From: a virus
Direction: 5' to 3' (one strand)
Length of the DNA: 54,360 nucleotides
Virus genome (UHGV): UHGV-1841366
Below the pieces are notes generated by a model. It was not told where the DNA came from. It ran no database searches and saw only the letters and a program-made list of their open reading frames with translations. Shown here in pieces: positions 4,222-47,669 of the stretch; within the stretch, counting starts at the first letter, position 1; every line of letters starts with the position of its first letter. The position numbers and the translations under genes are program-made.

Positions 4222-4278
4222 GCCTGCTTCCGTATATATAAATAATAAGTAACTTAATAAATATATACGGAAGCAGGC
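4222..4278. repeat. long AT-rich-loop hairpin, copy A of three
   Basis: GCCTGCTTCCGTATATAT ... ATATATACGGAAGCAGGC; near-identical copies at 19067-19122 and 47623-47669. Confidence 0.7.
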
Positions 4279-4530
4279 ACTGTTAAGACTCCAGAAGTGA
4301 GCAAAAATCAACCTAAAAAGACACTGAACTCACCAGAATAAACTTAACCAGCCAGTACAGGCGCTGAAGTCTTCCGTAGCAGGCATCAAAGGGAATTTCG
4401 TTAAGGTACTTCAGCATAGGGTGGATGGATATCAAACCGTATGTGTATTGCCTCTCGTTTGATGCCTCCTGAAGCACCTTTAAAAGTTTTTTAAAAGCGC
4501 TACAATGACTATCAGATAAGAGGAGGTTTT

Positions 4531-4782
4531 ATGAGCTATCAAATTCTGACGACGACAGCAGCCAGCATTACTGAGCTGAAAAGAAACCCTATGGGCACTG
4601 TAGCTGAAGGTGAGGGGGAGGCCGTCGCAATCCTGAACCGGAATGAACCCGCGTTTTACTGTGTCCCACCAGAACTTTATGCCTACTATCGGGAACTCGC
4701 CGAGGACGCTGAACTTAACGCGATTGCAGATGAAAGAATGAAAGAACCGGACATTGTGAAGGTTAACCTGAATGACCTATGA
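4531..4782 (+). CDS. type II antitoxin, RelB/StbD-like
   Basis: 83 aa; overlaps the downstream RelE-like gene by 11 nt; C-terminus (DAEL...VKVNLNDL) resembles the RelB C-terminus as I remember it; GAGGAGG ribosome-binding site. Confidence 0.6.
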   Translation: MSYQILTTTAASITELKRNPMGTVAEGEGEAVAILNRNEPAFYCVPPELYAYYRELAEDAELNAIADERMKEPDIVKVNLNDL

Positions 4783-5053
4783 GCTGGCATTTGAACGCAG
4801 GGCACTGAAAGAATGGCAGAAGCTCGGCCACACTGTTCGTGAACAATTCAAAAAGAAGCTGTCAGAGCGCCTGAAAAATCCACATGTCCCCGCAGCCAGG
4901 CTATATGGTCATACTGACCGTTACAAAATTAAGCTTCGCGCATCCGGTTACAGGCTCGTTTATCAGGTAATTGATGAGAAGGTTGTTTTGCTTGTCATTG
5001 CTGTAGGAAAAAGGGAAAGCAGCGAAGTCTATCACACGGCTGATACTCGTTAG
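4772..5053 (+). CDS. relE: type II toxin, RelE/ParE superfamily
   Basis: 93 aa; the stretch YKIKLRASGYRLVYQVIDEKVVLLVIAVGKRESSEVY closely matches the E. coli RelE sequence as I recall it (not database-checked). Confidence 0.7.
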   Translation: MTYELAFERRALKEWQKLGHTVREQFKKKLSERLKNPHVPAARLYGHTDRYKIKLRASGYRLVYQVIDEKVVLLVIAVGKRESSEVYHTADTR

Positions 5054-5100
5054 CAAAGTGCGCCTTATATCCTCGCCTGTTGACTAAATCTCATAATAAC

Positions 5101-5314
5101 CTGAGGTCAATTTCTTCTGTTTGTGACCTCAGGTTAATTTCCTTTATTTATAACCTTAACTTATTAGGCTGCATTTTATTCCGCGTCATCGCTTCATTAT
5201 TTATGTATATGGCGACCTTATTTAATTACGCCCACCTGAACTTACTTCTTTTCCGCCTGTTTCATTCAGCGATAATTAACGCATCGAAACGAAACTAAAC
5301 GAAAGGAGTTAAAA
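5101..5314 (+). promoter_or_regulatory. leader region duplicated upstream of 6217 (copy 1)
   Basis: Perfect inverted repeat CCTGAGGTCA/TGACCTCAGG at 5101-5134, then a block about 85 percent identical to 6143-6216 ending in the ribosome-binding site and ATG. Confidence 0.55.
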
Positions 5315-6034
5315 ATGAGTGCGCGTCTTAAGAAGCTTATCAAAAAGCGTAAATCTCTTAAAGAACATGCAGAATTGATAAATTTAATTGAAAAACGTTT
5401 TCCAGTCATTTCGGATATTGAGGACTTCTATTGGGTGGAGAAATGTAAAGTTTGGGATGGCATTGATGATGTAAAAGATGTGGATGATTTTGTCAGCAAG
5501 TACAACCCAGACATTAACTACAAACTAGCTGATGATTTTGCTGGCTCGTCTAAAGATGATCCGCTTCCTGATTGGTTTAACATTGATGATTATCCTAGTT
5601 GCATGTGTACCACCTACACCAACAAAGATTTTAGTAAAGCGTGGTTTGCTATTGCTTATGGCTGTTATTTCAATAAGTCCGACGGAAGCAAAAGACCATA
5701 TTTTCTCGCTGAAATAGACTTAACCAGCGGAGAGATTACAGTACACGAAAACCACAGGAATCTAATGAAGCTTGTTGATAGCGTTCGCGTACTGGATACA
5801 GACGCCCAGCAATTAACGAACAATGCATGGTTCGGACTTGATGGAGTAAAAGGGGGTATCGAACTGATAATGGGTCATCTTTTAAATGAATACTCGGACT
5901 GGTATCATCCGCCACACAATCCGCTTGAGTCATTTGACGATCCGCTTGAGCCATTTGACGATCCGCTGAAGGACTACATCGATGAACCAATATATATGAT
6001 GGAATCTTTTCAATTAGATATGATTCCAGCATGA
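5315..6034 (+). CDS. hypothetical acidic protein, paralog of 8730..9377
   Basis: 239 aa, very D/E-rich; shares the block AWF..(16-18 aa)..LAEIDL(T/L)SG(E/K)ITV and a C-terminal LEPLESF/PLESFDD motif with the minus-strand protein at 8730..9377. Confidence 0.55.
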   Translation: MSARLKKLIKKRKSLKEHAELINLIEKRFPVISDIEDFYWVEKCKVWDGIDDVKDVDDFVSKYNPDINYKLADDFAGSSKDDPLPDWFNIDDYPSCMCTTYTNKDFSKAWFAIAYGCYFNKSDGSKRPYFLAEIDLTSGEITVHENHRNLMKLVDSVRVLDTDAQQLTNNAWFGLDGVKGGIELIMGHLLNEYSDWYHPPHNPLESFDDPLEPFDDPLKDYIDEPIYMMESFQLDMIPA

Positions 6035-6039
6035 CAAAC

Positions 6040-6070
6040 GCCACCAGTTAACGCTGGTGGCTTCAAGTTT
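6040..6070 (+). terminator. hairpin containing a Chi octamer
   Basis: GCCACCAG / CTGGTGGC stem, then TTCAAGTTTT; GCTGGTGG at 6053-6060. Confidence 0.45.
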
Positions 6071-6077
6071 TGCTCTC

Positions 6078-6216
6078 ATCACCTCAGGTCAAATTTCCTC
6101 GTTTGCAACCTCAGGTCAATTTAAGAATGATATCACCTGTATCCCTGAACTTACTTCTTTTCTGCCTGTTTCATTCAGCGATGATTATTACATCGAAAAC
6201 AAACGAGGAATTAAAA
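6078..6216 (+). promoter_or_regulatory. leader region duplicated upstream of 5315 (copy 2)
   Basis: Direct repeats ACCTCAGGTCAA at 6081-6092 and 6107-6118; block homologous to 5236-5314. Confidence 0.55.
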
Positions 6217-7143
6217 ATGAAACCAGTATTTTTGGGGCGAATTGATATTAGTGAATTGTTTTCAGTTAGAGATGGGTTCCAATATGACTGTGATTGCCTT
6301 GAACTTAATGGTCTTGAACGTGAATACAGATTGGCTATTGTGAATGATGGTAAGAAGACATTTTCTGTCGAATGTTTTGAAAATACTTACTTTAAGCAGG
6401 TGTTGAGAATAAGACAGCATGTGGAGATGTCAATTCGGGAAAACATCAAAAATAAATGTGAGTTTCTTGTGGTTAAAAATGAAGCAGATGAAATAAACTT
6501 TGTTACGTTCACTGATAGTGGTCGATTGGCTATGCTGGAGCTATTTCAGCTGATCGTTTCTAATAACAGTATAACAGAAGCCTTGAACAGTCTTTCAACT
6601 ATAGTATCAAGAGAAAGAGAAAACACTGGCGCTTTAATTGTAGAGGAGCTAGATGGAATACTCGAGAAGATCAAGAATAAAGAGCTGATTATAGAATATG
6701 GCAAGGAAAGTAGGAAAAATAATTTACATTCAGCTTTTCACTCCCCATATGTTGAGCGTTTGAATGGTTTGGCTGCTTTTGTTAATTTGGACTTTAATAG
6801 ATTTTTTAGTTCTTTTTTTACAGAGTGTGGGCTTGTTATTGTTGAGGTAAATAATGAGAACGATGTCCCCAAAATTATAGTACATTCGATGCCTGATATA
6901 TCTCTCAATGAAATTGGGGACAAACTGGAGAATTTATACGATGTAAAAAGCATGGAAGAACTCATAGAGTATCTGGCCATAAATGCGGTAGCCATGGCTG
7001 ATAATGATGTGTTTGGGGTTGGTGCACTGCATGAAGGTTTTCTTGACGCCCTTGAGCTTTACGGGACTGCTCGCTGGTTTCTGTCAGGATTAGTGGATGA
7101 TGCACCTTTACTCATCAATACAGATTATTTTTATTCCAGTTGA
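6217..7143 (+). CDS. hypothetical protein
   Basis: In-frame ATG (MKPVFLGRI) of ORF 6070..7143 preceded by GAGGAATTAAAA; the upstream part of the ORF lies in the duplicated leader. AT-rich. Confidence 0.5.
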   Translation: MKPVFLGRIDISELFSVRDGFQYDCDCLELNGLEREYRLAIVNDGKKTFSVECFENTYFKQVLRIRQHVEMSIRENIKNKCEFLVVKNEADEINFVTFTDSGRLAMLELFQLIVSNNSITEALNSLSTIVSRERENTGALIVEELDGILEKIKNKELIIEYGKESRKNNLHSAFHSPYVERLNGLAAFVNLDFNRFFSSFFTECGLVIVEVNNENDVPKIIVHSMPDISLNEIGDKLENLYDVKSMEELIEYLAINAVAMADNDVFGVGALHEGFLDALELYGTARWFLSGLVDDAPLLINTDYFYSS

Positions 7144-7346
7144 AAACAAGGCCACCACTGCTGGTGGCCTTAAATGACCATCCTGTCTCCCGCAGGCTAA
7201 AAACACCAACCTCTTACCTCCAGGCAACCGACAAACCCACCTGTTCCCGTCCGGCTACCGCAACTTTCCACTTTGACGCCTTATTCGTACAACCATAATT
7301 AACACCAACAAGAGAACAATTTGTTATTTAGAATAAGGAATCAATC

Positions 7347-7829
7347 ATGAATTTTATCGCTACTGTAAACGCACCCGCACATGGCAATATCGCTGTAACG
7401 TTCTCTGACACTGAAAAACGAGTACTTGGTGCATGGCGCGACAATGAGACGGTAGAACTGTCAGCACAAGAAAAATGCATTATTGCACGCGACATCATTG
7501 GCAATCGTCGTTACTCGCGGGTATTTGAGAAAGCGTATGTGGTAAATTCTGGGTTCGGAACGTTCGTCTTTCCGGTGCGCTCCGGGCGATTCTGCCAGTC
7601 CAAGCTGATTGAGTTCGCTACGCAGATTTCTGTCTGGATTAAAACTCAATCGTCGTTCAAATTTTCCGACGATGAAGCAGTATCGCAGGGGATGCGGATC
7701 GCCAACAATGCAATTAAATGCAAAAACATTACGTATACCGCTGGCGTTGACACATGGAGACTGTTTTGCGCTAACTTTATGCTGAATGTATACGCAAGCA
7801 ACCGCATCCACATCCTTGATGGCGTGTAA
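7347..7829 (+). CDS. hypothetical protein
   Basis: ORF track; AAGGAA ribosome-binding site; variant palindromic motif at 7314-7326 upstream; terminator downstream. Confidence 0.55.
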   Translation: MNFIATVNAPAHGNIAVTFSDTEKRVLGAWRDNETVELSAQEKCIIARDIIGNRRYSRVFEKAYVVNSGFGTFVFPVRSGRFCQSKLIEFATQISVWIKTQSSFKFSDDEAVSQGMRIANNAIKCKNITYTAGVDTWRLFCANFMLNVYASNRIHILDGV

Positions 7830-7838
7830 CTGAGAAGA

Positions 7839-7860
7839 GGGCCAGAAACGGCCCTTTCTC
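7839..7860 (+). terminator. rho-independent terminator
   Basis: GGGCC / GGCCC stem with AGAAAC loop followed by TTTCTCT. Confidence 0.6.
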
Positions 7861-7955
7861 TATAGCCACCAGCTGCCGCAGGGAAATTTTCAGAAACGGC
7901 TAGGAACGCATTCATGAGCCGACGGGAAACGGCCAGGATTTTTTCGGGAAACGGC
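7845..7955. repeat. cluster of four GAAACGGC repeats
   Basis: GAAACGGC at 7845, 7893, 7926 and 7948 (last two 22 bp apart), flanked by a 9-bp inverted repeat CCACCAGCT (7866-7874) / AGCTGGTGG (7989-7997). Confidence 0.5.
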
Positions 7956-8365
7956 TACATTTGCCTTTATGTAGAAAAAACATCGGGAAGCTGGTGGAAT
8001 CCAATCAGCGGTTGTCGGACAGGTGAGCGGGGAAAATCATTATGACTCTCGTCACCTGAGACATCCAGATTTCTTTCATAGCGTAATCACATACGTGATT
8101 AAGTGGTGTGATTATGTGAAAAATCACGCGCACATAATACGCGAGCGGATACGGAACAAAACAAAATGCAGATTCGCGCCGACAAATAAACGCGGATCAT
8201 AAAGCAAGACTAAAAGCCAATGATTAACTATGCGCTATAGCGCAATATAACGCATTTTAAGCGCGTTAATGTGTTAAGTAATGGGTATGTACTGGCAAGG
8301 ATATAAAAGCGCGTCCATGGCGTTATTTTGGCGCTTATTTTTATGTTGTTGGAGTGAGTTAAAGA

Positions 8366-8391
8366 CAATAAAAAAGCGCCATCATTGGCGC
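8366..8391 (-). terminator. rho-independent terminator (minus strand)
   Basis: GCGCCA / TGGCGC stem with 4-nt loop; on the minus strand it is followed by a T-run (complement of AAAAA at 8371-8375). Confidence 0.55.
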
Positions 8392-8414
8392 GTTATGGTG
8401 GGAGTATTGGAAAC

Positions 8415-8439
8415 GAAAAAAGCGCCCATAGTGGGCGCT
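8415..8439 (-). terminator. rho-independent terminator (minus strand, possibly bidirectional)
   Basis: AGCGCCCA / TGGGCGCT stem; T-run on the minus strand; just downstream of the stop of the minus-strand gene 8445..8675. Confidence 0.6.
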
Positions 8440-8444
8440 CGATT

Positions 8445-8675
8445 TTATTTATGTAAACTGATTTCAAATCCCATTTCTACAAACGCTTTTAACATTAAAA
8501 ATATATCAGCGTCGTTCACGTCTGCTTTTTTCCGCTCCTGGTCGCTCAATAAGTCAATTTTGCGCGTCGTTTCGTCTATAAGCTCGACTGCGCGCCCAGC
8601 GTAACCAGCGATCCCAGCGATGCGATTAACATAATATTCATTATGGACGTTAACGCCAGCGATTAAAATAATCAT
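8445..8675 (-). CDS. hypothetical protein
   Basis: ORF track; AAGGAG about 10 nt upstream of the ATG on the minus strand. Confidence 0.5.
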   Translation of the reverse strand: MIILIAGVNVHNEYYVNRIAGIAGYAGRAVELIDETTRKIDLLSDQERKKADVNDADIFLMLKAFVEMGFEISLHK

Positions 8676-8696
8676 GCTTTAAAAACTCCTTTAAAT

Positions 8697-8714
8697 GCGC
8701 CCATATTTGGGCGC
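8697..8714. repeat. 18-bp palindrome GCGCCCATATTTGGGCGC (copy 1)
   Basis: Identical 18-mer at 9451-9468; each lies just downstream of a minus-strand gene stop. Confidence 0.6.
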
Positions 8715-8729
8715 ATGATTTATATGGTA

Positions 8730-9377
8730 TTATTCAAAATATGGAAATGCAGAATTTTCTTCATGATCTAATACGAAAGTTTTTTCATTAATATAATTTG
8801 GCGCATTATCGCCAAATGATTCTAGTGGTTCGAGATGATTGAAATCATCTTTTTTAATAAAGTAGGATATATAATAGATACCATCGTGTAAATCAGCCAA
8901 ACCACACCAAATATAATAGCCAATAGGATAACATGCAGGACCACGATTCACATAAACTGTAATTTTTCCGCTTAATAAATCCATCTCAGCAAAAAAAGCT
9001 AATCCGCTTTTTTCCTCTTCTCCTTCTTTTTCTCTGATTTTTCCGTTTAGAACGTCAGCACTTTGAATAAACCACGCTCTAGTAAAATCCGCGTTAACAT
9101 ATGTAGCAAATTCGCCAAAGTCGCAATTTTTGCGCAAGTTGGGTAAATCCTCGATTAAATCGAGATTGATATTTAATTGCGCTGTATTTTCAGCAATAAT
9201 TAGCTCTGCTTTCGTTAATTCCGTGTTATTAAATTCTGGCTTTTTTTCTGGTAATTTGTGCACTACTTCTTTGATTTTGTCAGCGAATTTAATTTTTGAT
9301 TTAATCAATGGAAGACGAGATTCAGCCATCTCTACGAAAGCAGAGATAAAAGATTCGCAAACAGTAAAAGTTTTCAT
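8730..9377 (-). CDS. hypothetical acidic protein, paralog of 5315..6034
   Basis: 215 aa; shared sequence blocks with 5315..6034 (see there); AT-rich. Confidence 0.55.
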   Translation of the reverse strand: MKTFTVCESFISAFVEMAESRLPLIKSKIKFADKIKEVVHKLPEKKPEFNNTELTKAELIIAENTAQLNINLDLIEDLPNLRKNCDFGEFATYVNADFTRAWFIQSADVLNGKIREKEGEEEKSGLAFFAEMDLLSGKITVYVNRGPACYPIGYYIWCGLADLHDGIYYISYFIKKDDFNHLEPLESFGDNAPNYINEKTFVLDHEENSAFPYFE

Positions 9378-9450
9378 ATTAAATTCCTCAATTAAAATCT
9401 GAACCAGATGAATAAAGCTAATATTAGCTTTATTCCGAGTTTTATCTCAT

Positions 9451-9468
9451 GCGCCCATATTTGGGCGC
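9451..9468. repeat. 18-bp palindrome GCGCCCATATTTGGGCGC (copy 2)
   Basis: Identical to 8697-8714; a 24-bp perfect palindrome AATAAAGCTAATATTAGCTTTATT lies next to it at 9409-9432. Confidence 0.6.
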
Positions 9469-9481
9469 TTGATTCCATTAA

Positions 9482-10132
9482 TTACGCTTTAAAAGCATCA
9501 GCTAGATAATTGTAGAAATCTTTTTTAATGAAGCGATATTGTTGAGTACCAGCTTTGGCGCTTCCCATTCCTTTGACTTTCTCAACAAGTCCGAGACGTT
9601 CGCAAAGATTGATTAGCTGGTTAGCTTGAGTATAGCCAGCGTCTAAGCGTAAATCATTTGCTCGCTTAACTTCATTCATTAAATCAAAAACAGCGCCATT
9701 AGTAAAAACTTCTACTTCGTCTTTGATCATGTGAACAAGTGCAAACACGCGTGATCCGCTCATATCGTCTTTGGAGTACTCGCATTTACCAGCTTTGATA
9801 GATTTAACCAGATAAACTAATTTTTCCAGTGAGTAACTGTTAGTCATCGCTTCGCGGAAAAACACTTCTGGTGCTTGTTTGCTTGCTTTAATCGCAAAGT
9901 AAAACACAGCAGACAATTTTTCGTCGTTAACAGCAGACAAAATGTTATTAGAGAAATATTTTAACTTTGTAGAAGCAGCGCGAAGATTATCTTTATCGTT
10001 TTTGGTCAGCGCGCCAGTGCTATTAAGAAGTTCATTCTTTTGCCCCAAGTCGTTAGCTTTTGCACCCAGCTCAGCAGCAACAATATTAGCAGCTTCAACG
10101 ATGTTTTTTTTAGATAATATAATGTTGGTCAT
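9482..10132 (-). CDS. hypothetical protein
   Basis: ORF track, 216 aa; no confident domain. Confidence 0.5.
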   Translation of the reverse strand: MTNIILSKKNIVEAANIVAAELGAKANDLGQKNELLNSTGALTKNDKDNLRAASTKLKYFSNNILSAVNDEKLSAVFYFAIKASKQAPEVFFREAMTNSYSLEKLVYLVKSIKAGKCEYSKDDMSGSRVFALVHMIKDEVEVFTNGAVFDLMNEVKRANDLRLDAGYTQANQLINLCERLGLVEKVKGMGSAKAGTQQYRFIKKDFYNYLADAFKA

Positions 10133-10423
10133 GATTTCAATCCTTAGATCAAATTAGAAAATTTATTTCGTTCTATCGTTAGCGTGTTCGCTTTCGACGA
10201 GTTCAATTATCGATACGCAAAAAAAGATTGCAAGTGTTTTTTCTTAGTTTTTTACAGGGACGAAAGTCCTAGAAATAAAAGCGAGATCGTCGAAGGTGTT
10301 CCCTAAATAAATAATCTACTCCGGCTTTTAACCTTATATATTTATACGGAGTGGAATAGGGGGTATTAAATGAATGGCGTGTAAAATAATAACCGGACTT
10401 AGCCGGTTATTACCCTTATAGAT

Positions 10424-10987
10424 TTAAAATGGAAGGATTCGGTCAACCCAATCGAAGAGAACAATCATTCTTGCATGTTCCCTGATTTTCATCGTCACCT
10501 GACAAGCATCAACGCCTAACGACACTCCCTCTATTTCACGGCCATCCGCCATGTAGACCCTTATAGATCTGCCGTTTTGATGAGCTTTGCGACATATCTT
10601 AAAAAAGTCACGACGTGATGGCTGGTTGTTCACGTAGTCAGGATGTACGGTAAGCCTGTCCGCAAAGTCCCCATCTACTTCTGGAGGTATAATCGTTTCT
10701 ATAGAGCTAACTTTCCCAAGAGGAAGACGAACTCGACGCTCTTTGCTTCTTGGAACGGGTGATAGATCAAGTTTGTTGCGTGATGGTAGTGTTCCCTGTA
10801 CATACATGTTGAATACCTGTCCATCTTCCATCGTGACTTTTACAGGAACAGAGTGTGCCCTCCAGAACATCAAGGTATGTTCCACATTAGAATAGTCTCG
10901 CGGCCATACTTCAGCCGGTATGCCGTATGTAATATCTTTCGTCGTCATATCATTATAAAGTGGTTGGCAATATGTCCATTGTACCAT
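10424..10987 (-). CDS. hypothetical protein
   Basis: ORF track, 187 aa; overlaps the upstream lipoprotein gene by 35 nt, so the true start may be the internal ATG at 10948; no clear ribosome-binding site for either. Confidence 0.4.
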   Translation of the reverse strand: MVQWTYCQPLYNDMTTKDITYGIPAEVWPRDYSNVEHTLMFWRAHSVPVKVTMEDGQVFNMYVQGTLPSRNKLDLSPVPRSKERRVRLPLGKVSSIETIIPPEVDGDFADRLTVHPDYVNNQPSRRDFFKICRKAHQNGRSIRVYMADGREIEGVSLGVDACQVTMKIREHARMIVLFDWVDRILPF

Positions 10988-11372
10988 CCCAGGTAGTGAA
11001 AACCCGATATGTTTTCGAGTCGCCCTGCTTTAGCTTTATTTCTCGTTCCATCCTGGAGGGGTTAAATGCGCAAAGACCTGAACTTTCAATTGATGTCCCA
11101 ACGATCCACTCTCCTTCGTTAAGGTAGAAAGTTGCTTTTTCACCAGGTTCTAGCTTTGCAACCGTTTCTCCATTGATGAAAATGGAAGCGTTACATGCAG
11201 AACCAACCAGCCCTTTGTCTCGAACTATTGTTAAACTAGACTCATGTGGTGTTTGATATTTAAATATTCTGCTTTGAGGTGCATCCTTTGCCTTTGAAAC
11301 AGATATAGACGAAGACGAACATCCAATTAGTGATGTGGTTAGTGTTAGAATAATTAGGTTTGTTACTTTCAT
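10953..11372 (-). CDS. putative lipoprotein
   Basis: N-terminus MKVTNLIILTLTTSLIGCSSSS: hydrophobic signal plus lipobox-like LIGC. Confidence 0.55.
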   Translation of the reverse strand: MKVTNLIILTLTTSLIGCSSSSISVSKAKDAPQSRIFKYQTPHESSLTIVRDKGLVGSACNASIFINGETVAKLEPGEKATFYLNEGEWIVGTSIESSGLCAFNPSRMEREIKLKQGDSKTYRVFTTWDGTMDILPTTL

Positions 11373-11388
11373 ATTTGTCTGACTATGA

Positions 11389-11940: not shown

Positions 11941-11978
11941 CTCCGGTTCTTAAGCATAGATAAGCCTACAAAATTAAT

Positions 11979-12045
11979 TCAGTCGATCAAGATCTTTTTT
12001 CAGCCGGAAGTTTATGTATCAAGAAGTGTGATCAAGTTCACATAC
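11979..12045. repeat. intergenic repeat R2 containing TGTGA-N6-TCACA
   Basis: About 80 percent identical to 13217-13285; palindrome TGTGATCAAGTTCACA at 12027-12042. Confidence 0.55.
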
Positions 12046-12185
12046 TGCTTTGCCAGAAGAATACCATATGCAAAACATTCTATTGCTGTTAAAATTTAAT
12101 CGTTCAGACATAAGGAAGCCCTATACCCTCGACAAATCTTTCTGGTATTGTCGAGGGCATGTTTCACATTTATAGGTAGATAGCG

Positions 12186-13166: not shown

Positions 13167-13216
13167 TATAATTCGACCTACTGGAATATCTTGATTTAAG
13201 AGGCTACAAATATCGT

Positions 13217-13285
13217 TCAGCCAATCAAGAAATTTTTTCAGCCGGAGGTTTGTACTTCAAAAAATGTGATGAATGTCACATGCAG
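13217..13285. repeat. intergenic repeat R1 containing TGTGA-N6-TCACA
   Basis: Palindrome TGTGATGAATGTCACA at 13265-13280; adjacent 10-bp perfect inverted repeat CATGCAGGTG/CACCTGCATG at 13279-13306. Confidence 0.55.
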
Positions 13286-13313
13286 GTGCGCTCATACACC
13301 TGCATGTAGACTA

Positions 13314-13913: not shown

Positions 13914-13945
13914 AGAATTGGTGGATAGGGGGTAAATATGGAACG

Positions 13946-14224: not shown

Positions 14225-14226
14225 AA

Positions 14227-18775: not shown

Positions 18776-19042
18776 ATGACGTTAACCGACAAACAAAAGG
18801 ACATAATCAAAACGCTCAATCTCGGTTATGAGCGAGGTCATCTACTTGATCTGGACGAATTGCTTGAAGTTTTGCCGTACAAGACAACCAAGCAAAGTAT
18901 CCAGTTCTCAATTCGCGCTCTGATAAAAAAGGGGCTGGTGGAGAAAGGGCATACGCGTCAACGCAGTGACAATCGCTATCACCGCCGGACTCTTGGGTTA
19001 ACCACTTTAGGTCGAGCCAAAGCGAAGTTACTGGTGATGTAA
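18776..19042 (+). CDS. small putative DNA-binding protein
   Basis: 88 aa, basic; carries a Chi octamer at 18934-18941; followed by hairpin repeat copy B. Confidence 0.35.
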   Translation: MTLTDKQKDIIKTLNLGYERGHLLDLDELLEVLPYKTTKQSIQFSIRALIKKGLVEKGHTRQRSDNRYHRRTLGLTTLGRAKAKLLVM

Positions 19043-19066
19043 TCGGTCTGGGAGCTTATTTAAAGA

Positions 19067-19122
19067 CCTGCTTCTGTATATATAAATAATAAGTAACTTA
19101 ATAAATATATACGGAAGCAGGC
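19067..19122. repeat. long AT-rich-loop hairpin, copy B
   Basis: CCTGCTTCTGTATATATAAATAATAAGTAACTTAATAAATATATACGGAAGCAGG; one stem mismatch relative to copy A. Confidence 0.7.
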
Positions 19123-19185
19123 TTAATAAGACATGCCCAGATTCAATTAAACACACCAGTAAACAAGTTGGTTAATAGATGCAGT

Positions 19186-19198
19186 AAACAAGTTGTTT
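19186..19198. promoter_or_regulatory. palindromic motif AAACAA-N-TTGTTT (copy upstream of terS)
   Basis: Perfect copy; variant copy at 19161-19173; followed by palindrome GAGCGC-ATGGAC-GCGCTC and the ATG at 19239. Confidence 0.5.
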
Positions 19199-19238
19199 TA
19201 GAGCGCATGGACGCGCTCTATGTGTTTTAGAGGGATCT

Positions 19239-40695: not shown

Positions 40696-40788
40696 TAGTA
40701 GAAAAAAAAATTTATATCGGTAAAAATAAGTAGGTATTTACTTTGTGGTGGGCAAGAATAGCCCACCAAAACAAGGAGCATATTCAAC

Positions 40789-43323
40789 ATGTGGTACAGG
40801 GAAGGTACTATCACATTTACACAGGGTAGCAATACTCTGGTTGGGGCAGGGACAGCCTGGAACGTAACCGCTAATGGTGTGTTGCCGGGTATGATCGTCG
40901 TTGGCCCCGATAATAAACTGTATGAGATCAAGCGCGTAACCAGTGACACGAATATTGTTCTCTCAGAACCTTATACCGGTGAAACTCAGTCTGAAGTTCC
41001 GTGCCGAATCATTACGACCTATGAGGGCGACTTAACGCAGTTTAGCGCACGCTTTACTGCACTAATGTCGCGTATGTCGGCTGATTCCAAGTCCATGCGT
41101 AGTTGGCTGACTGCCGTGGATGAAATCACAATTGAACGTGAAGATGGTACGGAATTAACCATAAAATCCCTTACTCAGATCGTTAATGAGCACAACAAAA
41201 ACGTAGAGTGGTATAAAAATAACACTGATGAAATTGATTCCGCTGGCACCTATGCGCGTGAGGCCGCGAGTAGCGCGACAACTGCTGCGCAAAACGCTGA
41301 GCGCGTTGAACAGATCGCGCAAAATATTGCTAACAGTATAAGTACGGCCCAGCAGGCTGCCACAGATGCTGCAAATAGTGCCGGTGCCGCGAAAACGTCA
41401 GAAACGAATGCGGCAGCGTCACAACAATCAGCAGCCACTTCTGCATCCACCGCGACCACGAAAGCGTCAGAAGCAGCCTCCTTAGCCAGGGATGCGTCGG
41501 CTTCAAAAGAGGCGGCAAAATCATCAGAAGCGAACGCGAAAGCGTCGGAAACCAGTGCCGAATCCTCAAAAACGGCAGCCGCATCGTCAGCCAGTTCGGC
41601 AGCGTCATCGGCATCGTCTGCGTCGGCTTCAAAAGATGAAGCGACTAAACAGGCGTCAGCCGCAAAAGATAGTGCTATGACTGCATCCTCGAAAGCAACA
41701 GAGGCGACAGGCAGTGCAACGGCTGCCTCTCAGAGCAAAACTGCTGCTGAATCCGCTGCGACCCGTGCGGAAGCTGCTGCTGCTCGTGCTGAAGAGATTG
41801 CCGGTGCAGTTGCGATGGAAGACGCAAGCCTTACAACTAAAGGTGTTGTGAAACTTAGCAGTGCGACCAACAGCACTTCAGAGTCACTGGCTGCAACCCC
41901 AAAAGCGGTAAAAGCTGCATATGACCTGGCTGACGGGAAATACACTGCGCAGGATGCAACGACAACCCAGAAAGGGATAATCCAGCTAAGTAGCGCCATC
42001 AATGACGAATCTGAAACGCTTGCTGCAACGCCAAAAGCGGTAAAAGTCGCCTATGACAATGCCGAAAACCGCCTGCAGAAAGATCAGAATGGCGCTGATA
42101 TCCCTGACAAGAACGCATTCAGGGAAAGTCTTGGGCTGGGGGATGCCGCCACCAAAAATATCGGTACTACAGCCGGCACCGTAGCGGCAGGAAACGACTC
42201 CAGACTGGTTAACGCACTGCAAAAATCCACTTCAGCCCTGGCCGTGGACCTGAATACACTGGGGAGTCTGGAAGTCCAGGGAACTTATTATCAGCCAGCG
42301 GATAAAGGGGCAACAGCTGCGCATCATTACCCGGTGCTCCGGTCCGGGACATTGCAGGTTCTGCCTGGTGTCTGGGGAGGCTGCCAACAGGAATATACGA
42401 GCTGGAATCCACCGAGAAAATTTGTGAGAACACTGACAGGCTATTTCAAAGGTAATGGCCCGTGGTCGCCGTGGGTGGAGGTGGCGTTTACCGACAGTAC
42501 AGTGGCTGTTGCGACCGCAGCGACAAAATTGCAGACGACCAGAAGAGTTGGTGGTGTGGATTTTGACGGGACATCAGATATCAGCCTCCCCGGAGTGGAT
42601 GCGCCAGGCGATCAGGATACGACAGGTAATGCGGCTACTGCGACCAAATTGCAGACGCCAGTGAATATTAACGGTACAGCGTTTGATGGTAGCCACGATA
42701 TCACGATCCGGGATGAAGGTGCATTTCAGAAGCCTGCGCTCTTTATACATTCCTCTGTAGATTTGAACACGCTAGGTGGTCCAGGTAGCGAAGGTTTTTA
42801 TTTTCAGAAATACGGGAGTGTGGCGACAGTTGATCATCATTACCCAACCAACAGACCAGGCACGCTGACTGTACTGCGTGGTGGATTTGACGGATGCCAG
42901 CAGGAATATTTTAGTGTTAATCCTCCAAGGAAATTTTTCAGGGCATTAACAGGAGCCTGGAACGGACAGGATGGCCCATGGTCAGACTGGTTTGAGATTC
43001 AGACTCTGGGAGGTGGAAGTGGAGGTACGCAGGTTTTTGGAACCGAATATCAAAATAAATCATCAGAACGCGGTCCGGGTGTTACATACACTAATAGTCG
43101 ATCGTATCCGATTATGGTGATCATTGATGGATACTACGGAGGTGGTGACGGTTTTCATCTTTTTATAAACGATGAAATATTGATATCCCCATCTACATCT
43201 TCAGGACAAAATGACGACCAATTTCAGTTTACTTTCATCGTTCCGGCAGGCGCAACGTACATGATCTTTGAAAAAACTTTCGGTACGAATTTCCGTATTC
43301 ACACCTGGTTGGAGTTTTGTTAA
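40789..43323 (+). CDS. side tail fibre protein
   Basis: 844 aa; phage tail-fibre repeat pattern (KGIIQLSSAINDESETLAATPKAVKVAYD, twice), long Ala/Ser-rich low-complexity region, internally duplicated C-terminal blocks. Confidence 0.7.
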   Translation: MWYREGTITFTQGSNTLVGAGTAWNVTANGVLPGMIVVGPDNKLYEIKRVTSDTNIVLSEPYTGETQSEVPCRIITTYEGDLTQFSARFTALMSRMSADSKSMRSWLTAVDEITIEREDGTELTIKSLTQIVNEHNKNVEWYKNNTDEIDSAGTYAREAASSATTAAQNAERVEQIAQNIANSISTAQQAATDAANSAGAAKTSETNAAASQQSAATSASTATTKASEAASLARDASASKEAAKSSEANAKASETSAESSKTAAASSASSAASSASSASASKDEATKQASAAKDSAMTASSKATEATGSATAASQSKTAAESAATRAEAAAARAEEIAGAVAMEDASLTTKGVVKLSSATNSTSESLAATPKAVKAAYDLADGKYTAQDATTTQKGIIQLSSAINDESETLAATPKAVKVAYDNAENRLQKDQNGADIPDKNAFRESLGLGDAATKNIGTTAGTVAAGNDSRLVNALQKSTSALAVDLNTLGSLEVQGTYYQPADKGATAAHHYPVLRSGTLQVLPGVWGGCQQEYTSWNPPRKFVRTLTGYFKGNGPWSPWVEVAFTDSTVAVATAATKLQTTRRVGGVDFDGTSDISLPGVDAPGDQDTTGNAATATKLQTPVNINGTAFDGSHDITIRDEGAFQKPALFIHSSVDLNTLGGPGSEGFYFQKYGSVATVDHHYPTNRPGTLTVLRGGFDGCQQEYFSVNPPRKFFRALTGAWNGQDGPWSDWFEIQTLGGGSGGTQVFGTEYQNKSSERGPGVTYTNSRSYPIMVIIDGYYGGGDGFHLFINDEILISPSTSSGQNDDQFQFTFIVPAGATYMIFEKTFGTNFRIHTWLEFC

Positions 43324-43325
43324 GA

Positions 43326-43691
43326 ATGAAATATTTTGTCGATGCGAAAGGTACTATTTATGCCTACGAGTCTGACGGTTCGCAGGATGAGTTCATTAAA
43401 GAGGGACTGACGCCAGTAACGGAAGCGGAGGTGAAAGAACGCCTGAAACCATCAGCAGAATGCTGGCAACGACGAGCGGAGAGCAAGAGAGAGTCGTTGA
43501 TATCTGAAGCTGGTCGCAATTTGTCCGTCAATCAGGTTCGATTGCTTTCGGGGCGTGTGTTATCAGAACGTGAGAGTCAGTCGCTGAATGCCTGGCTGGA
43601 TTACGTAGACGCACTGGAGGCGATGACGTTTGCTGCTGTTGTTGATGAGGAAAGCTATCTCAGCATCAAGTGGCCGGAAAAACCCGCGTGA
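43326..43691 (+). CDS. tail fibre assembly protein (putative)
   Basis: About 121 aa immediately after the fibre gene; ATG at 43326 (ORF track starts at TTG 43317). Confidence 0.5.
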   Translation: MKYFVDAKGTIYAYESDGSQDEFIKEGLTPVTEAEVKERLKPSAECWQRRAESKRESLISEAGRNLSVNQVRLLSGRVLSERESQSLNAWLDYVDALEAMTFAAVVDEESYLSIKWPEKPA

Positions 43692-43997
43692 TAAAAAGGC
43701 CCGCACACAAGGTGCGGGCAAATGATCGCGTAATATACTCAACAATTAGCTCTGTAATTATACAGATTCTTAATAGCGACAGAACTATTTAATGCGCTCG
43801 GATTCGTTTTTAGTTGAAGTAATATTAAACACCCTGAAATATCGTATAAGTTACTCGAAGGGGTTCATTAGAATCCATTCAATGCTTTCTCGGCAGTGCT
43901 TTGAAACGATAATGGATAAGTAAGCACATACCTACAATGAAAGTGTGATATGTGATATAAATCCGCCATCCCGATTTGACTTTTCATGGAGGAAAAC

Positions 43998-44321
43998 ATG
44001 TCGAACGAGATGGCGGGCGTTACAACAGATCAAGTTGAGCGTATTGCCGCAATCGTTGCTCGGGAGGTTGTTGGCAAATTGGGTAAAGAGCTACGTGAAG
44101 AAATTGGCCAGGAGGTCAACGATCAGCTGAAAACCTACTTTGGTGATATGACCCCGGCGCAACATAGTATTCAACACTCCAACCTGGACAAACTCCTTAA
44201 CCGGTTAGATTCCATCTCAAGTGGGTTCTTTGGCGGCATTGTTTCTAAAATAACGTCGTTCATTATTACCGCACTGCTTTTGGGGTTAGCCGCGTATGGC
44301 GTAAAAAACGGGCTGCAATAA
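43998..44321 (+). CDS. putative lysis-cassette membrane protein (holin candidate)
   Basis: ATG after GGAGG; single C-terminal hydrophobic helix (ITSFIITALLLGLAAYGV); first gene of the block ending in spanins. Topology is atypical for holins. Confidence 0.3.
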   Translation: MSNEMAGVTTDQVERIAAIVAREVVGKLGKELREEIGQEVNDQLKTYFGDMTPAQHSIQHSNLDKLLNRLDSISSGFFGGIVSKITSFIITALLLGLAAYGVKNGLQ

Positions 44322-44334
44322 CAGGAGATCAAGG

Positions 44335-45027
44335 ATGAAAACTCCGAGAGGCATTCGTAATAATAACCCCGGTAATCTTGATAAAGGATCACCGTGGCAA
44401 GGTCTGGTTGCGAATCCAGACGAACCGCGCTTTTGCACGTTTAAAGACCCTGTTTGGGGGATTCGTGCGCTGGCGGTGACTCTAATTACCTACCACGATA
44501 AACGTCGCGCAAAAGACGGCTCAAGTATCGATACCATTCGTGAAGTTATTGAACGCTGGGCACCGCCGAATGAAAACAATACTGACGCCTACATTAATGA
44601 GGTGTCTAAAGCCGTTGGTGTAACCGCAGACATGATCATCGATCTGCATGATTACGACATCCTTCGACCTTTGGTTGAGGCAATCATTCGCCACGAGAAT
44701 GGTCGAGGTCCACTCAAAACGCTGAACACCTGGTATGCGGCAGAAGTTATTGAGGAAGGTCTGCGTCGAGCTGGCGTCGTTAAGCCGGTGAAAACCGTGA
44801 AGGCTGTTCCTGTAACTAAAGAAACCGCAGGCGCAACTGTTACAGCAGGTATTGGTCTGGCGCAGCTGGCCGATGTTATGCCGCAGGTTTCCGCTGCTAT
44901 GGATAAGGCACAAGGTCATATCTCTAGCGGGGATACAGTACGCATCATCTTCGGTATTGCCACTATTGTTGTGGCAGGATTCATTGCCTGGTCGCAGGTA
45001 AGAAAACATCAGAAAGGGATGGTCTAA
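44335..45027 (+). CDS. putative endolysin-position protein with C-terminal membrane anchor
   Basis: 230 aa between holin candidate and spanins; C-terminal hydrophobic helix; I could not assign a hydrolase family. Confidence 0.3.
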   Translation: MKTPRGIRNNNPGNLDKGSPWQGLVANPDEPRFCTFKDPVWGIRALAVTLITYHDKRRAKDGSSIDTIREVIERWAPPNENNTDAYINEVSKAVGVTADMIIDLHDYDILRPLVEAIIRHENGRGPLKTLNTWYAAEVIEEGLRRAGVVKPVKTVKAVPVTKETAGATVTAGIGLAQLADVMPQVSAAMDKAQGHISSGDTVRIIFGIATIVVAGFIAWSQVRKHQKGMV

Positions 45028-45028
45028 T

Positions 45029-45280
45029 ATGCTAGGCAGCCTGATGACAAAGCTAAAAGTTGCTTTGATTACGCTGGCTGCCGTTCTTTTCGTTCTGGTC
45101 GGCGCTTACACGATGGGCGGAAATGCGGCGCGACGAGCAATGGAAGAGAAGGCAAAACAGGAAGACAGAAAACGACTTCAAAACACAGTGGAAGTGGTAA
45201 ATGAGACGAGCAATAAAATACGTCAGAAAGATGCTTCTGCCATTCATCGTGAGTTGTATGATAAGTGGGTGCGTCATTAA
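45029..45280 (+). CDS. i-spanin (Rz-like)
   Basis: 83 aa with N-terminal transmembrane helix followed by a charged helical region; o-spanin ORF embedded in another frame. Confidence 0.55.
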   Translation: MLGSLMTKLKVALITLAAVLFVLVGAYTMGGNAARRAMEEKAKQEDRKRLQNTVEVVNETSNKIRQKDASAIHRELYDKWVRH

Positions 45281-45416
45281 ACCACAAACCGCCAGCGTAT
45301 TGTTCTGCGATGGAGCTGAGCCTATCTATATCAGCAATAATGATGTAATGACCGAAGAAACCGAACGCCAAATCCTTTTTCACAATACGATGGGAGAGAG
45401 AGTTTGCGGTTGGTGA
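45201..45416 (+). CDS. o-spanin (Rz1-like lipoprotein)
   Basis: Overlaps the i-spanin in a different frame; signal-like segment with lipobox-like ISGC; true start may be the internal ATG at 45231. Confidence 0.5.
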   Translation: MRRAIKYVRKMLLPFIVSCMISGCVIKPQTASVLFCDGAEPIYISNNDVMTEETERQILFHNTMGERVCGW

Positions 45417-45424
45417 TACGAAGT

Positions 45425-45442
45425 TCCCCTCATTTGAGGGGA
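45425..45442. terminator. hairpin between convergent genes
   Basis: TCCCCTCA / TGAGGGGA stem between the + strand spanins and the minus-strand toxin gene. Confidence 0.45.
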
Positions 45443-45447
45443 GTACA

Positions 45448-45969
45448 TTATTCTTCGAACAATTTTTCGATAGATTTTGTTGGATAGAACAAAGATCGCT
45501 CGTTGTTTCCAATCAACTGGATAAAGCCCAGGCTTTTATAAAACGCCTTAGCCTTATCATTCAACGCCTCAACGAAGAGTCCATGAATACCAACAGCAAG
45601 AGAGGCGTTATACACAACACGCATAGCGTGTGTTACAAGCATTGAGCCAAACCCTTGACTTTGAAGAGGTTTGTCCAAAGCCAGTCTGCCCAAAGTAACA
45701 CTTGGCACATTCCGATAAGGCACCTTCTTTTGCTGGCTTCTTGAAGGTAAGGACTCCTTTTCAAAGCAGCTGCCTGACAAAGTGTAATACCCTAACACTT
45801 TGGGTCTGTCTTCTTTAGTGCAAAGCACATAAGCGCGAAGAATTTTTCCCTCATGCTGTCTTTTTAAGTGGTTGATTAAAAAGGAGTTTAGAGATTCTTC
45901 ACCGCAATCAAAGCCATTCAAATCATAATCTTTCTCTCCAGAGAAAATTTCTATCTTTATATTATCCAC
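45448..45969 (-). CDS. ataT: GNAT-family toxin of a type II toxin-antitoxin pair (AtaT/TacT/KacT-like)
   Basis: 173 aa; near-collinear match to the AtaT sequence as I recall it (DYDL..FDCGEE, VLGYYTL.GSCFE, IPSVTLGRLA, GIHGLFVEALN, FYKSLGF); 7-nt gap to the upstream antitoxin. Confidence 0.7.
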   Translation of the reverse strand: MDNIKIEIFSGEKDYDLNGFDCGEESLNSFLINHLKRQHEGKILRAYVLCTKEDRPKVLGYYTLSGSCFEKESLPSRSQQKKVPYRNVPSVTLGRLALDKPLQSQGFGSMLVTHAMRVVYNASLAVGIHGLFVEALNDKAKAFYKSLGFIQLIGNNERSLFYPTKSIEKLFEE

Positions 45970-45976
45970 GAGTAAA

Positions 45977-46246
45977 CTATTCCATGCTTTTCAGACGATC
46001 AGCAGCTCGTTTCAGCTTGTCGTTCGGTGCCGGAGGATTGCTTATAGCGTCCATAACCAGATTCCAGGATTCCTCATTCAGAACCAGTCTACGGTGTTGC
46101 TCTATAACTTTCACGGCACGTTCAGATGCACTGCTAACCATAAACTGAGTAATGCTCTGGTTAGACATTGCGGCAGCTTCCTCGATGATGCTTTTATCGT
46201 CATCGGTTAATCTCAAATCGATGCGCTGCTTTTTTAGTGCTGACAT
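45977..46246 (-). CDS. ataR: DUF1778-type antitoxin (AtaR/TacA-like)
   Basis: ATG at 46246 preceded by AGGAGG (ORF track begins upstream at 46285); MSALKKQRIDLRLTDDDKS...NEESW closely resembles AtaR as recalled. Confidence 0.7.
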   Translation of the reverse strand: MSALKKQRIDLRLTDDDKSIIEEAAAMSNQSITQFMVSSASERAVKVIEQHRRLVLNEESWNLVMDAISNPPAPNDKLKRAADRLKSME

Positions 46247-46434
46247 GTATTCCTCCTGATGGCCGTGATGTAGGAAGGCCATCAATCTCCTCTGTTCAAA
46301 CTGAGGTTTCGACTCAAAAATTACTTTAAAAGGCTATAGCCCATTACGTGTGCATTATCAAATTGTGTACGGCATATCACCGTACTTGTAATATAGAGGT
46401 CATTGTTACTTTTTTCAACAGACAAATACAAGCT

Positions 46435-46456
46435 GTGATTGCCAATTGTTAATCAC
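46435..46456. promoter_or_regulatory. operator-like inverted repeat GTGATT-N10-AATCAC
   Basis: In the 318-bp divergent region between ataR and parA; a second inverted repeat GTACGG-N8-CCGTAC lies at 46369-46390. Confidence 0.35.
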
Positions 46457-46516
46457 AACCTACCATTTAACCTTTACACCGCAGCCGTAGGCATTTAGGC
46501 TATATCACATATAAGA

Positions 46517-46529
46517 AAACAAGTTGTTT
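46517..46529. promoter_or_regulatory. palindromic motif AAACAA-N-TTGTTT (copy upstream of parA)
   Basis: Perfect copy 36 nt upstream of the parA start. Confidence 0.5.
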
Positions 46530-46564
46530 CAGACGATAATTATATACGCAAAGGGAACTCTCCA

Positions 46565-47233
46565 ATGACCAAGATCTTTGTGGTTGGCGGCACAAAGGGC
46601 GGGCCTGGCAAATCCACCGTTGCCCAGCAAATTGCCGTTTGCCTGAAAGTCAAAAAGAAGAAGAAGGTTTATATCACTGATATAGATATTCAGCGCACGA
46701 CAACAAGCTGGTGTGAAGACCGTCGACAGAACGAAGACCTTGAGCTGATTCCTTTTGCATACGTTCAGGATGACATCATTAAGCACCTAAAATCACTTCA
46801 GGGTAGAGCTGAGTTTGTAGTGGTAGATGCTGGTGGCTTTGACTCCGAAATTCAGCGACAAGCGATGCTGATGGCTGACGTTATCATTATCCCGCTTCGT
46901 CCTAAGCGTCGTGATTTGAAATCTCTGCGTGACATCGATCCTATTATCGACAATGTTCGTAATGTAAACGATAAAGTGAAGGTCCGCGCGGTCATGAACC
47001 AGTGCCCGGCTTTGCCATCACAAGTGTCTCGCATTCTGGCGGCTAAAGAGATTGTCGAGACGTTTGGCATCGAGTCTGCGCCTGTCAATCTATATAACCG
47101 CAACGTCTACGATGATGCGGAAGAGTCTGGTCGTTCTATCTTTGAAATGACCGGTAGCGAGCGCGACAAAAAGGCGGAAGCCGAGTTTGAAGAATTTGTA
47201 GATTATCTGTTGAGTCTGGAGGAAGAAGAATAA
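46565..47233 (+). CDS. parA: ParA-family partition ATPase (small, type Ib-like)
   Basis: 222 aa; deviant Walker A GGTKGGPGKST; no N-terminal DNA-binding extension. Confidence 0.75.
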   Translation: MTKIFVVGGTKGGPGKSTVAQQIAVCLKVKKKKKVYITDIDIQRTTTSWCEDRRQNEDLELIPFAYVQDDIIKHLKSLQGRAEFVVVDAGGFDSEIQRQAMLMADVIIIPLRPKRRDLKSLRDIDPIIDNVRNVNDKVKVRAVMNQCPALPSQVSRILAAKEIVETFGIESAPVNLYNRNVYDDAEESGRSIFEMTGSERDKKAEAEFEEFVDYLLSLEEEE

Positions 47234-47592
47234 TGTCCATGAAAATGGGTGACCTAGCAAAGCGCAAAGAGCCTGATGCACCGGCTAAGAACACAACTCC
47301 TTTGCGCCAACCAGTCAGACCACAGGGACGCCCGACTCGTGGCAAAGAGAAAATTAAAAGCCGCACAATGTCACTGGAAGACGAATACTTCGAACTGCTG
47401 GAGATGATGAAGTTCATCCCTCGTTTCGAGAAGTTCACCCGTTCTGACGTGATTCGAGCAGCTATTTTCCATCTGGCAGAGAAGTCACCGCAGGAAATCG
47501 AGGACATCGTGAAACTTAACGAGGCGATCACAGCTGCCGACGTTACTATGCGTACCGATGAAATCAAGCGAGAACTCATGAAAAAAGGCTGA
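47233..47592 (+). CDS. ParG-like small centromere-binding protein (putative)
   Basis: 119 aa translationally coupled to parA (TAATG); basic disordered N-terminus and short C-terminal helical region. Confidence 0.5.
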   Translation: MSMKMGDLAKRKEPDAPAKNTTPLRQPVRPQGRPTRGKEKIKSRTMSLEDEYFELLEMMKFIPRFEKFTRSDVIRAAIFHLAEKSPQEIEDIVKLNEAITAADVTMRTDEIKRELMKKG

Positions 47593-47622
47593 CAACTTCC
47601 GGTCTGGCAGCTTCAATCAGAA

Positions 47623-47669
47623 CCTGTTTCTGTATATAAATAATAAGTAACTTATTAAATATATATATA
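47623..47669. repeat. long AT-rich-loop hairpin, copy C
   Basis: CCTGTTTCTGTATATAAATAATAAGTAACTTATTAAATATATATATACGGAAGCAGG; shorter and more diverged than A and B. Confidence 0.65.

Follow-up and report, generated by a model that had tools for sequence, protein, structure and literature searches.

Introduction

The RNase III sites of phage T7 are two-part stems, shorter than the hairpins described below, that lie within one long transcript. T4-type phages carry promoter-early stem-loop (PeSL) regulatory cassettes, lambdoid phages have boundary or linker sequences, and N15 is known for its dispersed centromere palindromes. Here we describe a hairpin element that occurs three times, as copies A, B and C, in a stretch of 54,360 nucleotides of the virus genome UHGV-1841366 (hereafter the window), which sequence matches identify as an Escherichia coli phage-plasmid of the SSU5 type. 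Our data favor, with moderate confidence, a family-specific terminator or insulator hairpin that stands at the borders of gene modules and acts in the sense-strand RNA.

The element resembles each of several described systems in part. With Rho-independent terminators it shares a GC-rich base, a position in the sense direction after a stop codon and a U-tract, the latter at copy C and at a further site of its relatives, next to a methyltransferase gene; as in bidirectional terminators, its A-rich 5′ and U-rich 3′ flanks pair. It differs from Rho-independent terminators in having a stem of 17–27 pairs (~45 with the flanks) with an A/U-only top, in being repeated three to four times per genome with a near-invariant sequence, and in lacking a U-tract at copies A and B. 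Like the T7 RNase III sites, it is a set of related intergenic sense hairpins in one genome, with a long duplex, internal loops and a position between gene blocks, but two of the sites here carry terminator U-tracts and the duplex is known by prediction. PeSL cassettes and lambdoid linkers are likewise repeated stem-loops that edge variable blocks and offer homology for module shuffling; however, PeSL cassettes are found throughout a hyperplastic region, whereas this element has three to four copies at core-module borders. A simple promoter scan found no promoter-like site within it on the + strand. The ERIC and REP repeats are also transcribed, intergenic, imperfect palindromes (~100–130 nt), but only 4 of the 849 E. 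coli places of our element are chromosomal, its copy number is 3–4 and its orthologous positions are fixed. Finally, as with the centromere palindromes of N15, the copies are few, are scattered near the starts of lytic blocks and share their genome with ParA/ParB-type genes; unlike them, they show a conserved extended pairing plus a U-tract, which point to a role in RNA.

Results

Three copies of a rod-like hairpin in the window

At each of three sites, the arms CCTGCTTCCGTATATA and TATATACGGAAGCAGG enclose a centre made of A and T only, and the near-perfect palindrome of 55–58 bp that results, in the same orientation each time, can be read directly in the window. When the window was searched for TATATACGGAAGCAGG with three mismatches or fewer, six matches were found, which are exactly the three arm pairs (0.29 expected from shuffles); the three hairpins reported by an earlier, sequence-only reading of this DNA are thus real. 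The inner palindrome of copy A (4222–4278, + strand) consists of GCCTGCTTCCGTATATAT, the A/T-only centre and ATATATACGGAAGCAGGC, and its arms match perfectly. That of copy B (19067–19122, + strand) has the left arm CCTGCTTCTG, giving one G·U pair in the sense RNA, and that of copy C (47623–47679, + strand) has the left arm CCTGTTTCTG, giving two. These are the coordinates first proposed for A and B; the end proposed for C, 47669, fell 10 bases short. The loops, previously described as AT-rich, contain no other bases, and to this we can add that the loop is nearly self-complementary (AATAAGT-A-ACTTATT), so that the entire 55–58 nt are palindromic up to a tip of 3–5 nt. The loop motif AATAATAAGTAACTTA is present on the + strand in 3/3 copies. 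TAAGTAA, which had been singled out, is indeed found in all three loops, but we do not consider it a signal in its own right because relatives vary at this place (AAGTGAC, AAATAAC, AAGTACT, ACATATT and flipped versions).

Each hairpin is lengthened into a rod of ~100 nt by flanking inverted repeats, TCTGGGAG ... CTCCCAGA, that extend the stem. A three-copy alignment and folding showed that an upstream GGTCTGG(G/C)AG and a downstream C(T)CCAGA bracket the palindromes and that the stretches in between pair as well. The full rod of copy A (4193–4295, + strand) has the outer stem GGTCTGGGAG/CTCCAGA plus a middle stem, that of copy B (19045–19143, + strand) has the outer stem GGTCTGGG/CCCAGATT, and the full element at copy C (47601–47702, + strand) is delimited by the outer motifs GGTCTGGCAG and CCAGA, found by motif search. 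Structure prediction, which the sequence-only reading had set as a check, gave strong RNA folds for all three rods: −45.0 kcal/mol for A (z −7.5; as DNA, −24.9 kcal/mol, z −7.4), −41.8 kcal/mol for B (z −8.3) and −31.4 kcal/mol for C (z −4.5). The GC-rich base of the stem, CCUGCUUCCG/CGGAAGCAGG, is conserved, and the predicted duplex comprises 17–19 perfect pairs, or up to ~27 with its extension by A-U pairs and ~45 interrupted pairs with the flanks.

The positions also agree with the first description, since the copies lie after a + strand gene or in an intergenic gap, 85–250 nt before the next gene block. At sites B and C the element starts 3–8 nt past the upstream stop codon. With its outer stem counted, the rod of copy B begins 3 nt past the stop codon of an 88-aa gene (18776–19042).

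Distribution of the element and occupancy of its sites

The window is 96–99% identical to many plasmids of ~109 kb and to phages CMS-2020a, PhiR41_1 and Cyrano. It is ~80% identical to Salmonella phage SSU5, with which it is collinear (SSU5 90.4–103.3 kb and 1–42.6 kb). A scan of viral contigs with the exact arm returned 120 loci, and all those that could be placed were SSU5-like. Among 5426 complete E. coli genomes the element is present in 240, with a median of four places per genome, and 845 of the 849 places lie on plasmids of ~100–120 kb, the other 4 being chromosomal. These counts show that the element is restricted to the SSU5-type phage-plasmid family. No match to it was found in Rfam 15 at the gathering score, the matches in the window being tRNAs only, and permissive Rfam scans gave far sub-threshold matches only, to generic microRNA-precursor hairpins. 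In the searchable literature, a search on hairpins, packaging ends and terminators of SSU5, pHCM2 and pMT1 found no description of the element.

The search in related genomes, another check that had been suggested, was made on orthologous sets gathered through neighbouring proteins in order to avoid selecting on the hairpin itself. Copy B stands between the 88-aa gene, which closes a block with two ParB-family genes and two ABC-type ATPase genes, and a terS-like DNA-binding gene followed by the terminase. A hairpin was found at this site in 49/49 distinct regions upstream of the terS-like gene, a set that spans Yersinia pestis, Kluyvera and Klebsiella-type relatives. At site C it was found in 80/80 loci upstream of a 249-aa gene, two contigs ending within the hairpin. 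Besides B and C, a third site is occupied in SSU5 and in plasmid pEC881_2; it lies outside the window, just after an N6-adenine methyltransferase gene, and the hairpin is kept there in all close relatives.

The repeat also coincides with the ends of several records. The start of the SSU5 record NC_018843 falls in hairpin B, between its loop and right arm, two IMG/VR contigs (L212 and L225) start inside hairpin C, and the Cyrano record has its start at the corresponding point. Short-read assemblies seem to break at the repeat, which would also have fixed the arbitrary start of the SSU5 record.

Base pairing is kept by compensatory change

Among close relatives the arms hardly vary; what differs from lineage to lineage is the DNA between the arms and the outer stems. 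In the alignment of site B, the pair 41:82 is C-G in 15 sequences, U·G in 13 and U-A in 3, and 11 sequences show a switch between A-U and G-C at the pair 28:93, which adjoins the arm base. Another arm position has followed the same path at site C, CCTGTTTCTG being accompanied by CGGAAACAGG in locus L288, and in the Cyrano copy both arms are altered (CTTCTG/CAGAAG). When the flanks only were shuffled, the real flanks were seen to extend the helix beyond chance in every lineage (z from −1.5 to −6.9, and −3.9 for copy B). Across lineages the full rods range from −37 to −56 kcal/mol.

The strongest evidence comes from distant relatives. Where the methyltransferase is 59–63% identical, the architecture is unchanged and the sequences are different. 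A Xenorhabdus-type relative has the arms GCCTTGCTCCCATA/TATGGGAGCAAGGC, which differ from the common arms by three mirrored changes, and the outer stem CCGCAGTG/CACTGCGG (−51.1 kcal/mol, z −9.7). Another distant relative has GCCGTGTTCCCATA/TATCGGAGCACGGC (−43.5 kcal/mol, z −5.6), and a Moellerella-type version reads GTTCCCAT/ATGGGAAC. The same architecture is thus rebuilt from new, mutually compensated sequence, and we conclude from these lines of evidence together that it is the base pairing that is under selection. Searches of plasmid databases with the distant-relative loci gave zero matches. The 14-base arm pattern of the Xenorhabdus lineage gave chance matches only among viral contigs, and the two-arm pattern found one copy there, in the Xenorhabdus-type contig itself.

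We also looked at the strand on which the pairs are better formed. For the ten basal pairs, read on the sense strand, G·U and C·A combinations stand at 9:1 at site B and 30:3 at site C, and the sense fold is more stable than the antisense fold in 20 of 27 lineages. This bias fits a hairpin acting in the sense RNA, for which it is supportive only, the events being few and phylogenetically linked.

U-tracts and expression across site C

The sequence-only reading stated that the hairpins have no downstream U-tract and are therefore not classical terminators. The first statement holds for copy A, whose 3′ flank on the + strand is the U-poor CACTGTTA, and for copy B, with CTTAATAA. It does not hold for copy C, whose stem is directly followed by the U-tract TCTTTTAA (47680–47687, + strand); after the stem we read TCTTTTAAAAG, which includes TCTTTT directly past the GC-rich stem base. 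This tract is conserved: T makes up five or more of the first eight bases in 40 of the 46 distinct variants of site C and four or more in every one of them, and the threshold of five is also reached by 26 of the 33 variants at the methyltransferase site of relatives. The second statement, as a blanket one, fails on the U-tract of copy C, on its presence in 40/46 variants and on the fall of expression to background described below. At site B, a Klebsiella oxytoca-group relative that we examined (locus L484) has a hairpin GAGCC...GGCTC followed by T8. A diverged clade (methyltransferase 68–73% identical) has, at the methyltransferase site, half of the element and then a separate canonical terminator. 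From these two cases we infer that termination is a property kept at these sites as their sequence changes. On the − strand, the stem of copy A is followed by a good U-tract, CATTTTTAAAA.

Copy C has a ParA-like gene and a 119-aa gene on one side, and the 249-aa gene, a DnaB-like helicase gene and a primase gene on the other. Gene-level RNA-seq values from an LF82 prophage study allowed us to follow expression across this site in the lysogen of phage Cyrano (PMC9928086). There, ParA stands at 49.8 and CYRAN_29, the homologue of the 119-aa gene, at 89.1 (PMC9928086, S1 table); the cargo gene CYRAN_30 still reaches 54.6, and CYRAN_31, the homologue of the 249-aa gene, drops to 6.2 on a scale whose floor is 4.99 (PMC9928086). 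The Cyrano hairpin sits in the 193-nt gap between CYRAN_30 and CYRAN_31, and expression in the lysogen falls ~9-fold or more across it. Under other conditions the difference across this site amounts to 3 to 7.8 log2 units (PMC9928086). Such a drop, seen at the gene level in a relative, is what a terminator at site C would predict. The genes around site B and the methyltransferase site are silent in the Cyrano lysogen and hence uninformative (PMC9928086).

Two further observations come from the same data. CYRAN_43, a hypothetical gene on the − strand of Cyrano, stands ~700-fold above background in the lysogen, and several toxin-antitoxin pairs are also high (CYRAN_26/27 and CYRAN_50/51) (PMC9928086, S1 table).

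Cargo to the left of copy C

In relatives, the right flank of site C is constant and its left flank consists of more than 12 unrelated sequences, with the break at, or a few bases short of, the left arm. In pEC881_2, the gene for a 564-aa P-loop protein stops 12 nt short of the arm and the outer-left motif is missing; in SSU5, three extra genes are inserted at site C and the outer-left motif is retained. The inner hairpin is thus always found together with the replication module downstream of it, and the region on its left (47593–47622 in the window, between the ParA-like/119-aa pair and hairpin C, and the orthologous places in loci L209–L288) is a hot spot for cargo. A 55-bp homology shared by several borders and by many plasmids would be the simplest cause of these cargo joins, and we regard the joining of cargo as a consequence of the repeat rather than a selected function.

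Copy A also lies in variable cargo. It precedes a toxin-antitoxin pair of the Phd/ParE type, in a region that is absent from SSU5 and from most E. coli relatives. It is also found in the Escherichia albertii plasmid p2014C-4015-1, where the left arm differs by a single C-to-T change. About 100 nt past copy A, at 4370–4385, the sequence TCTTCCGTAGCAGGCA resembles the inner end of the left arm joined to the outer end of the right arm, and it is conserved in the E. albertii plasmid. Upstream of copy A are two tandem terminator-like hairpins, one at 4050–4109 (GCGCCAGAA...TTCTGGCGC plus T7) and one at 4112–4147 (GACAGGA...TCCTGTC plus a T-rich run).

Other features of the window

A 13-bp palindrome, AAACAAnTTGTTT, occurs nine times in the window, compared with 0.5 expected, at 85–97, 136–148, 814–826, 2010–2022, 2561–2573, 19161–19173, 19186–19198, 46517–46529 and 48549–48561. 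Most copies are 14–40 nt 5′ of start codons, including those of the terS-like, ParA-like and DnaB-like genes, and the palindrome looks like an operator of a phage-plasmid regulator. Directly 5′ of the ribosome-binding site of the terS-like gene there is a small GC-rich hairpin followed by a T-run (TAGAGCGC...GCGCTCTA, 19199–19230), which shows a compensatory change in relatives (GAGCGC/GCGCTC to GAGCAC/GTGCTC) and may be an attenuator in the leader of the late operon. Toward the end of the window are a 22-nt inverted repeat that is 95% complementary, with a spacer of 42 nt (53571–53656), and three tRNA genes (54114–54357).

Discussion

The element described here is real, is restricted to one phage-plasmid family, always stands at fixed sites and keeps its pairing by compensatory change. 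We propose that transcription coming from an upstream block would meet a rod of ~100 nt whose base is GC-rich (CCUGCUUCCG/CGGAAGCAGG), whose top is A/U-only and whose lower stem comes from the flanks. Copy C and the methyltransferase-site copy of relatives, with a U-tract behind the stem, would act as classical Rho-independent terminators, and copy C would in this way bar plasmid-maintenance and cargo transcription from the lytic replication module, which is repressed. At copies A and B, with their weak U-tracts, termination would probably be partial. Because the stem is a duplex of 17–27 bp, it would presumably serve at these two copies as a stem that protects the 3′ end or as an RNase III-type cleavage site, which would uncouple the upstream and downstream messages; for copy B, whose rod is complete but has no U-tract in E. 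coli and Salmonella, such a cut or such a protection seems the most natural reading. Copy A would not be needed as a simple + strand terminator, because two terminator-like hairpins precede it. The presence of the repeat at several borders and in many relatives would in addition provide homology for recombination. The roles in processing or stability and in recombination that the sequence-only reading had put forward thus each fit part of the evidence.

Several observations weigh against a terminator. Of the 8 bases past the stem, only 3 are T at copies A and B, and 2–4 in the variants of site B. None of the three hairpins was picked up by a simple promoter and terminator scan, for which their loops are too long or their T count too low. 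The two hairpins that already precede copy A make a third look redundant. The transcriptome evidence is at the gene level, comes from a relative and concerns one site. The bias toward the sense strand is not universal either, G·U and C·A combinations standing at 9:8 at the methyltransferase site, and in some copies (L215, L250 and that of SSU5) the centre or the arm differences are flipped. The arms themselves are near-invariant across E. coli, Salmonella, Klebsiella pneumoniae, Yersinia and Kluyvera, although the adjoining intergenic DNA diverges, and in those same genomes ordinary compensatory change is seen in a small terminator-like hairpin at a distance of 80 nt; the conservation of the arms exceeds what structure alone would need. 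Lastly, two different sites of the Xenorhabdus lineage share the new arm TATGGGAGCAAGGC and the outer motif CACTGCGG, which suggests either gene conversion or a factor that co-evolves with the sequence.

These last observations are also what would be expected if the palindrome were a sequence-specific site for a protein of the phage-plasmid, with the arms as a recognition sequence that co-evolves with its protein. The candidates would be a regulator, an RNA-binding antitermination or processing factor, or a ParB-type protein with centromere or silencing palindromes as in N15. Arms that hardly change across genera while the DNA between them and the outer stems diverges, arms and outer motifs common to two Xenorhabdus sites, and an inner palindrome that flips its orientation without being lost, as a symmetric site would, all agree with such a protein, and copy B has two ParB-family genes upstream of it, copy C a ParA-like gene. 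A site in double-stranded DNA, however, needs no complementary variable flanks, yet the flanks pair in every lineage, nor does it need a conserved U-tract on the sense strand, and gene conversion among 55-bp repeats in a freely recombining family can explain the shared arms. We consider a protein site rather unlikely, although more probable than the other rival readings. A more specific form of the idea, which we hold to be unlikely, is that the hairpins, instead of being passive terminators, are cis-sites of a dedicated factor co-evolving with each lineage. This factor, a DNA-binding protein like ParB or an antiterminator or processing protein that binds RNA, would open or close the borders between the plasmid-maintenance genes and the lytic modules (late operon and replication module). 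If this were true, a few palindromes of identical sequence would coordinate whether the phage-plasmid lives as a plasmid or as a phage.

E. coli RNase III needs a duplex of roughly 20 bp, and the predicted 17–19 perfect pairs, extending to ~27 and then to ~45 interrupted ones, would offer a suitable substrate. The copies might then be mainly processing sites in long transcripts, as in T7, that leave stable 3′ stems, and the missing U-tracts of copies A and B and the intergenic, sense-oriented position of every copy would agree with this. Processing, however, requires no U-tract, and one is conserved at two sites of the family, with T8 at site B of L484; cleavage is moreover compatible with termination and does not exclude it, so that as the main function it appears doubtful to us. 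It is quite improbable that the hairpins are recombination linkers or small mobile elements (MITE- or attC-like) that move cargo, with secondary effects on transcripts. The more than 12 unrelated left flanks joined at copy C next to a constant right flank, and the presence of copy A in a cargo region missing from SSU5 and most E. coli relatives, are what one would expect of such elements. On the other hand, sites B and C are never empty and no polymorphism in the insertion or excision of the element was seen, there are only 3–4 copies per genome and almost none on chromosomes, and attC core sites, an Rfam match and a dedicated recombinase beside the copies are all lacking; active site-specific recombination between direct copies would also delete essential blocks. 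Least probable, in our opinion, is a signal at the DNA level, either for packaging (a pac or cos site at copy B) or for lytic replication (an AT-rich unwinding centre between inverted initiator sites at copy C). The packaging role proposed for copy B by the sequence-only reading finds its support in the position, 117 nt before the terS-like gene, and the element is found at two to three other places per genome. Copy C is 108 nt before the replication module, an A/T-only centre between GC-rich inverted repeats would suit an origin, and the SSU5 GenBank record opens inside copy B. But the element is also at 3–4 unrelated borders, assembly is the simplest explanation of the SSU5 break, since other contigs end in the repeat too, and covarying flanks and a sense-strand U-tract are unexpected for sites of this kind. 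The GC skew is unchanged at the copies; in the SSU5 profile, it is uniformly positive and follows gene direction, with no origin-like shift, and is to that extent uninformative. The arm core GCTTCCGTA, searched for as an initiator repeat, is not enriched outside the hairpins, and no extra repeats of the arm motif are found near C. A terminator or insulator acting in RNA, on balance, probably accounts best for the U-tracts, the paired flanks and the expression drop.

Some identities could be set aside. A chromosomal repeat of the ERIC, REP or MITE kind is ruled out by the distribution on plasmids and by the lack of empty sites at B and C. Integron attC sites are ruled out as well, since there are no R″/R′ core sites (RYYYAAC ... 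GTTRRRY), no Rfam match and no integron integrase beside the copies; a paper on phage attC sites mentions SSU5 in passing only. A telomere-resolution site of the N15 telRL type does not fit circular relatives with 3–4 copies and no annotated protelomerase. We also rejected TAAGTAAC as a wider motif, its extra matches being stop-codon contexts and the motif not being conserved in relatives.

The SSU5-type phage-plasmids include pHCM2 of Salmonella Typhi and relatives of pMT1 of Yersinia pestis, are found in ~4% of complete E. coli genomes and carry resistance and defence cargo. The 55-bp repeat offers a compact marker for this family. If the element is indeed an insulator bordering the late operon and the lytic replication module, it would help to explain how lytic genes stay silent beside transcribed maintenance and cargo genes, and why cargo builds up at one particular border.

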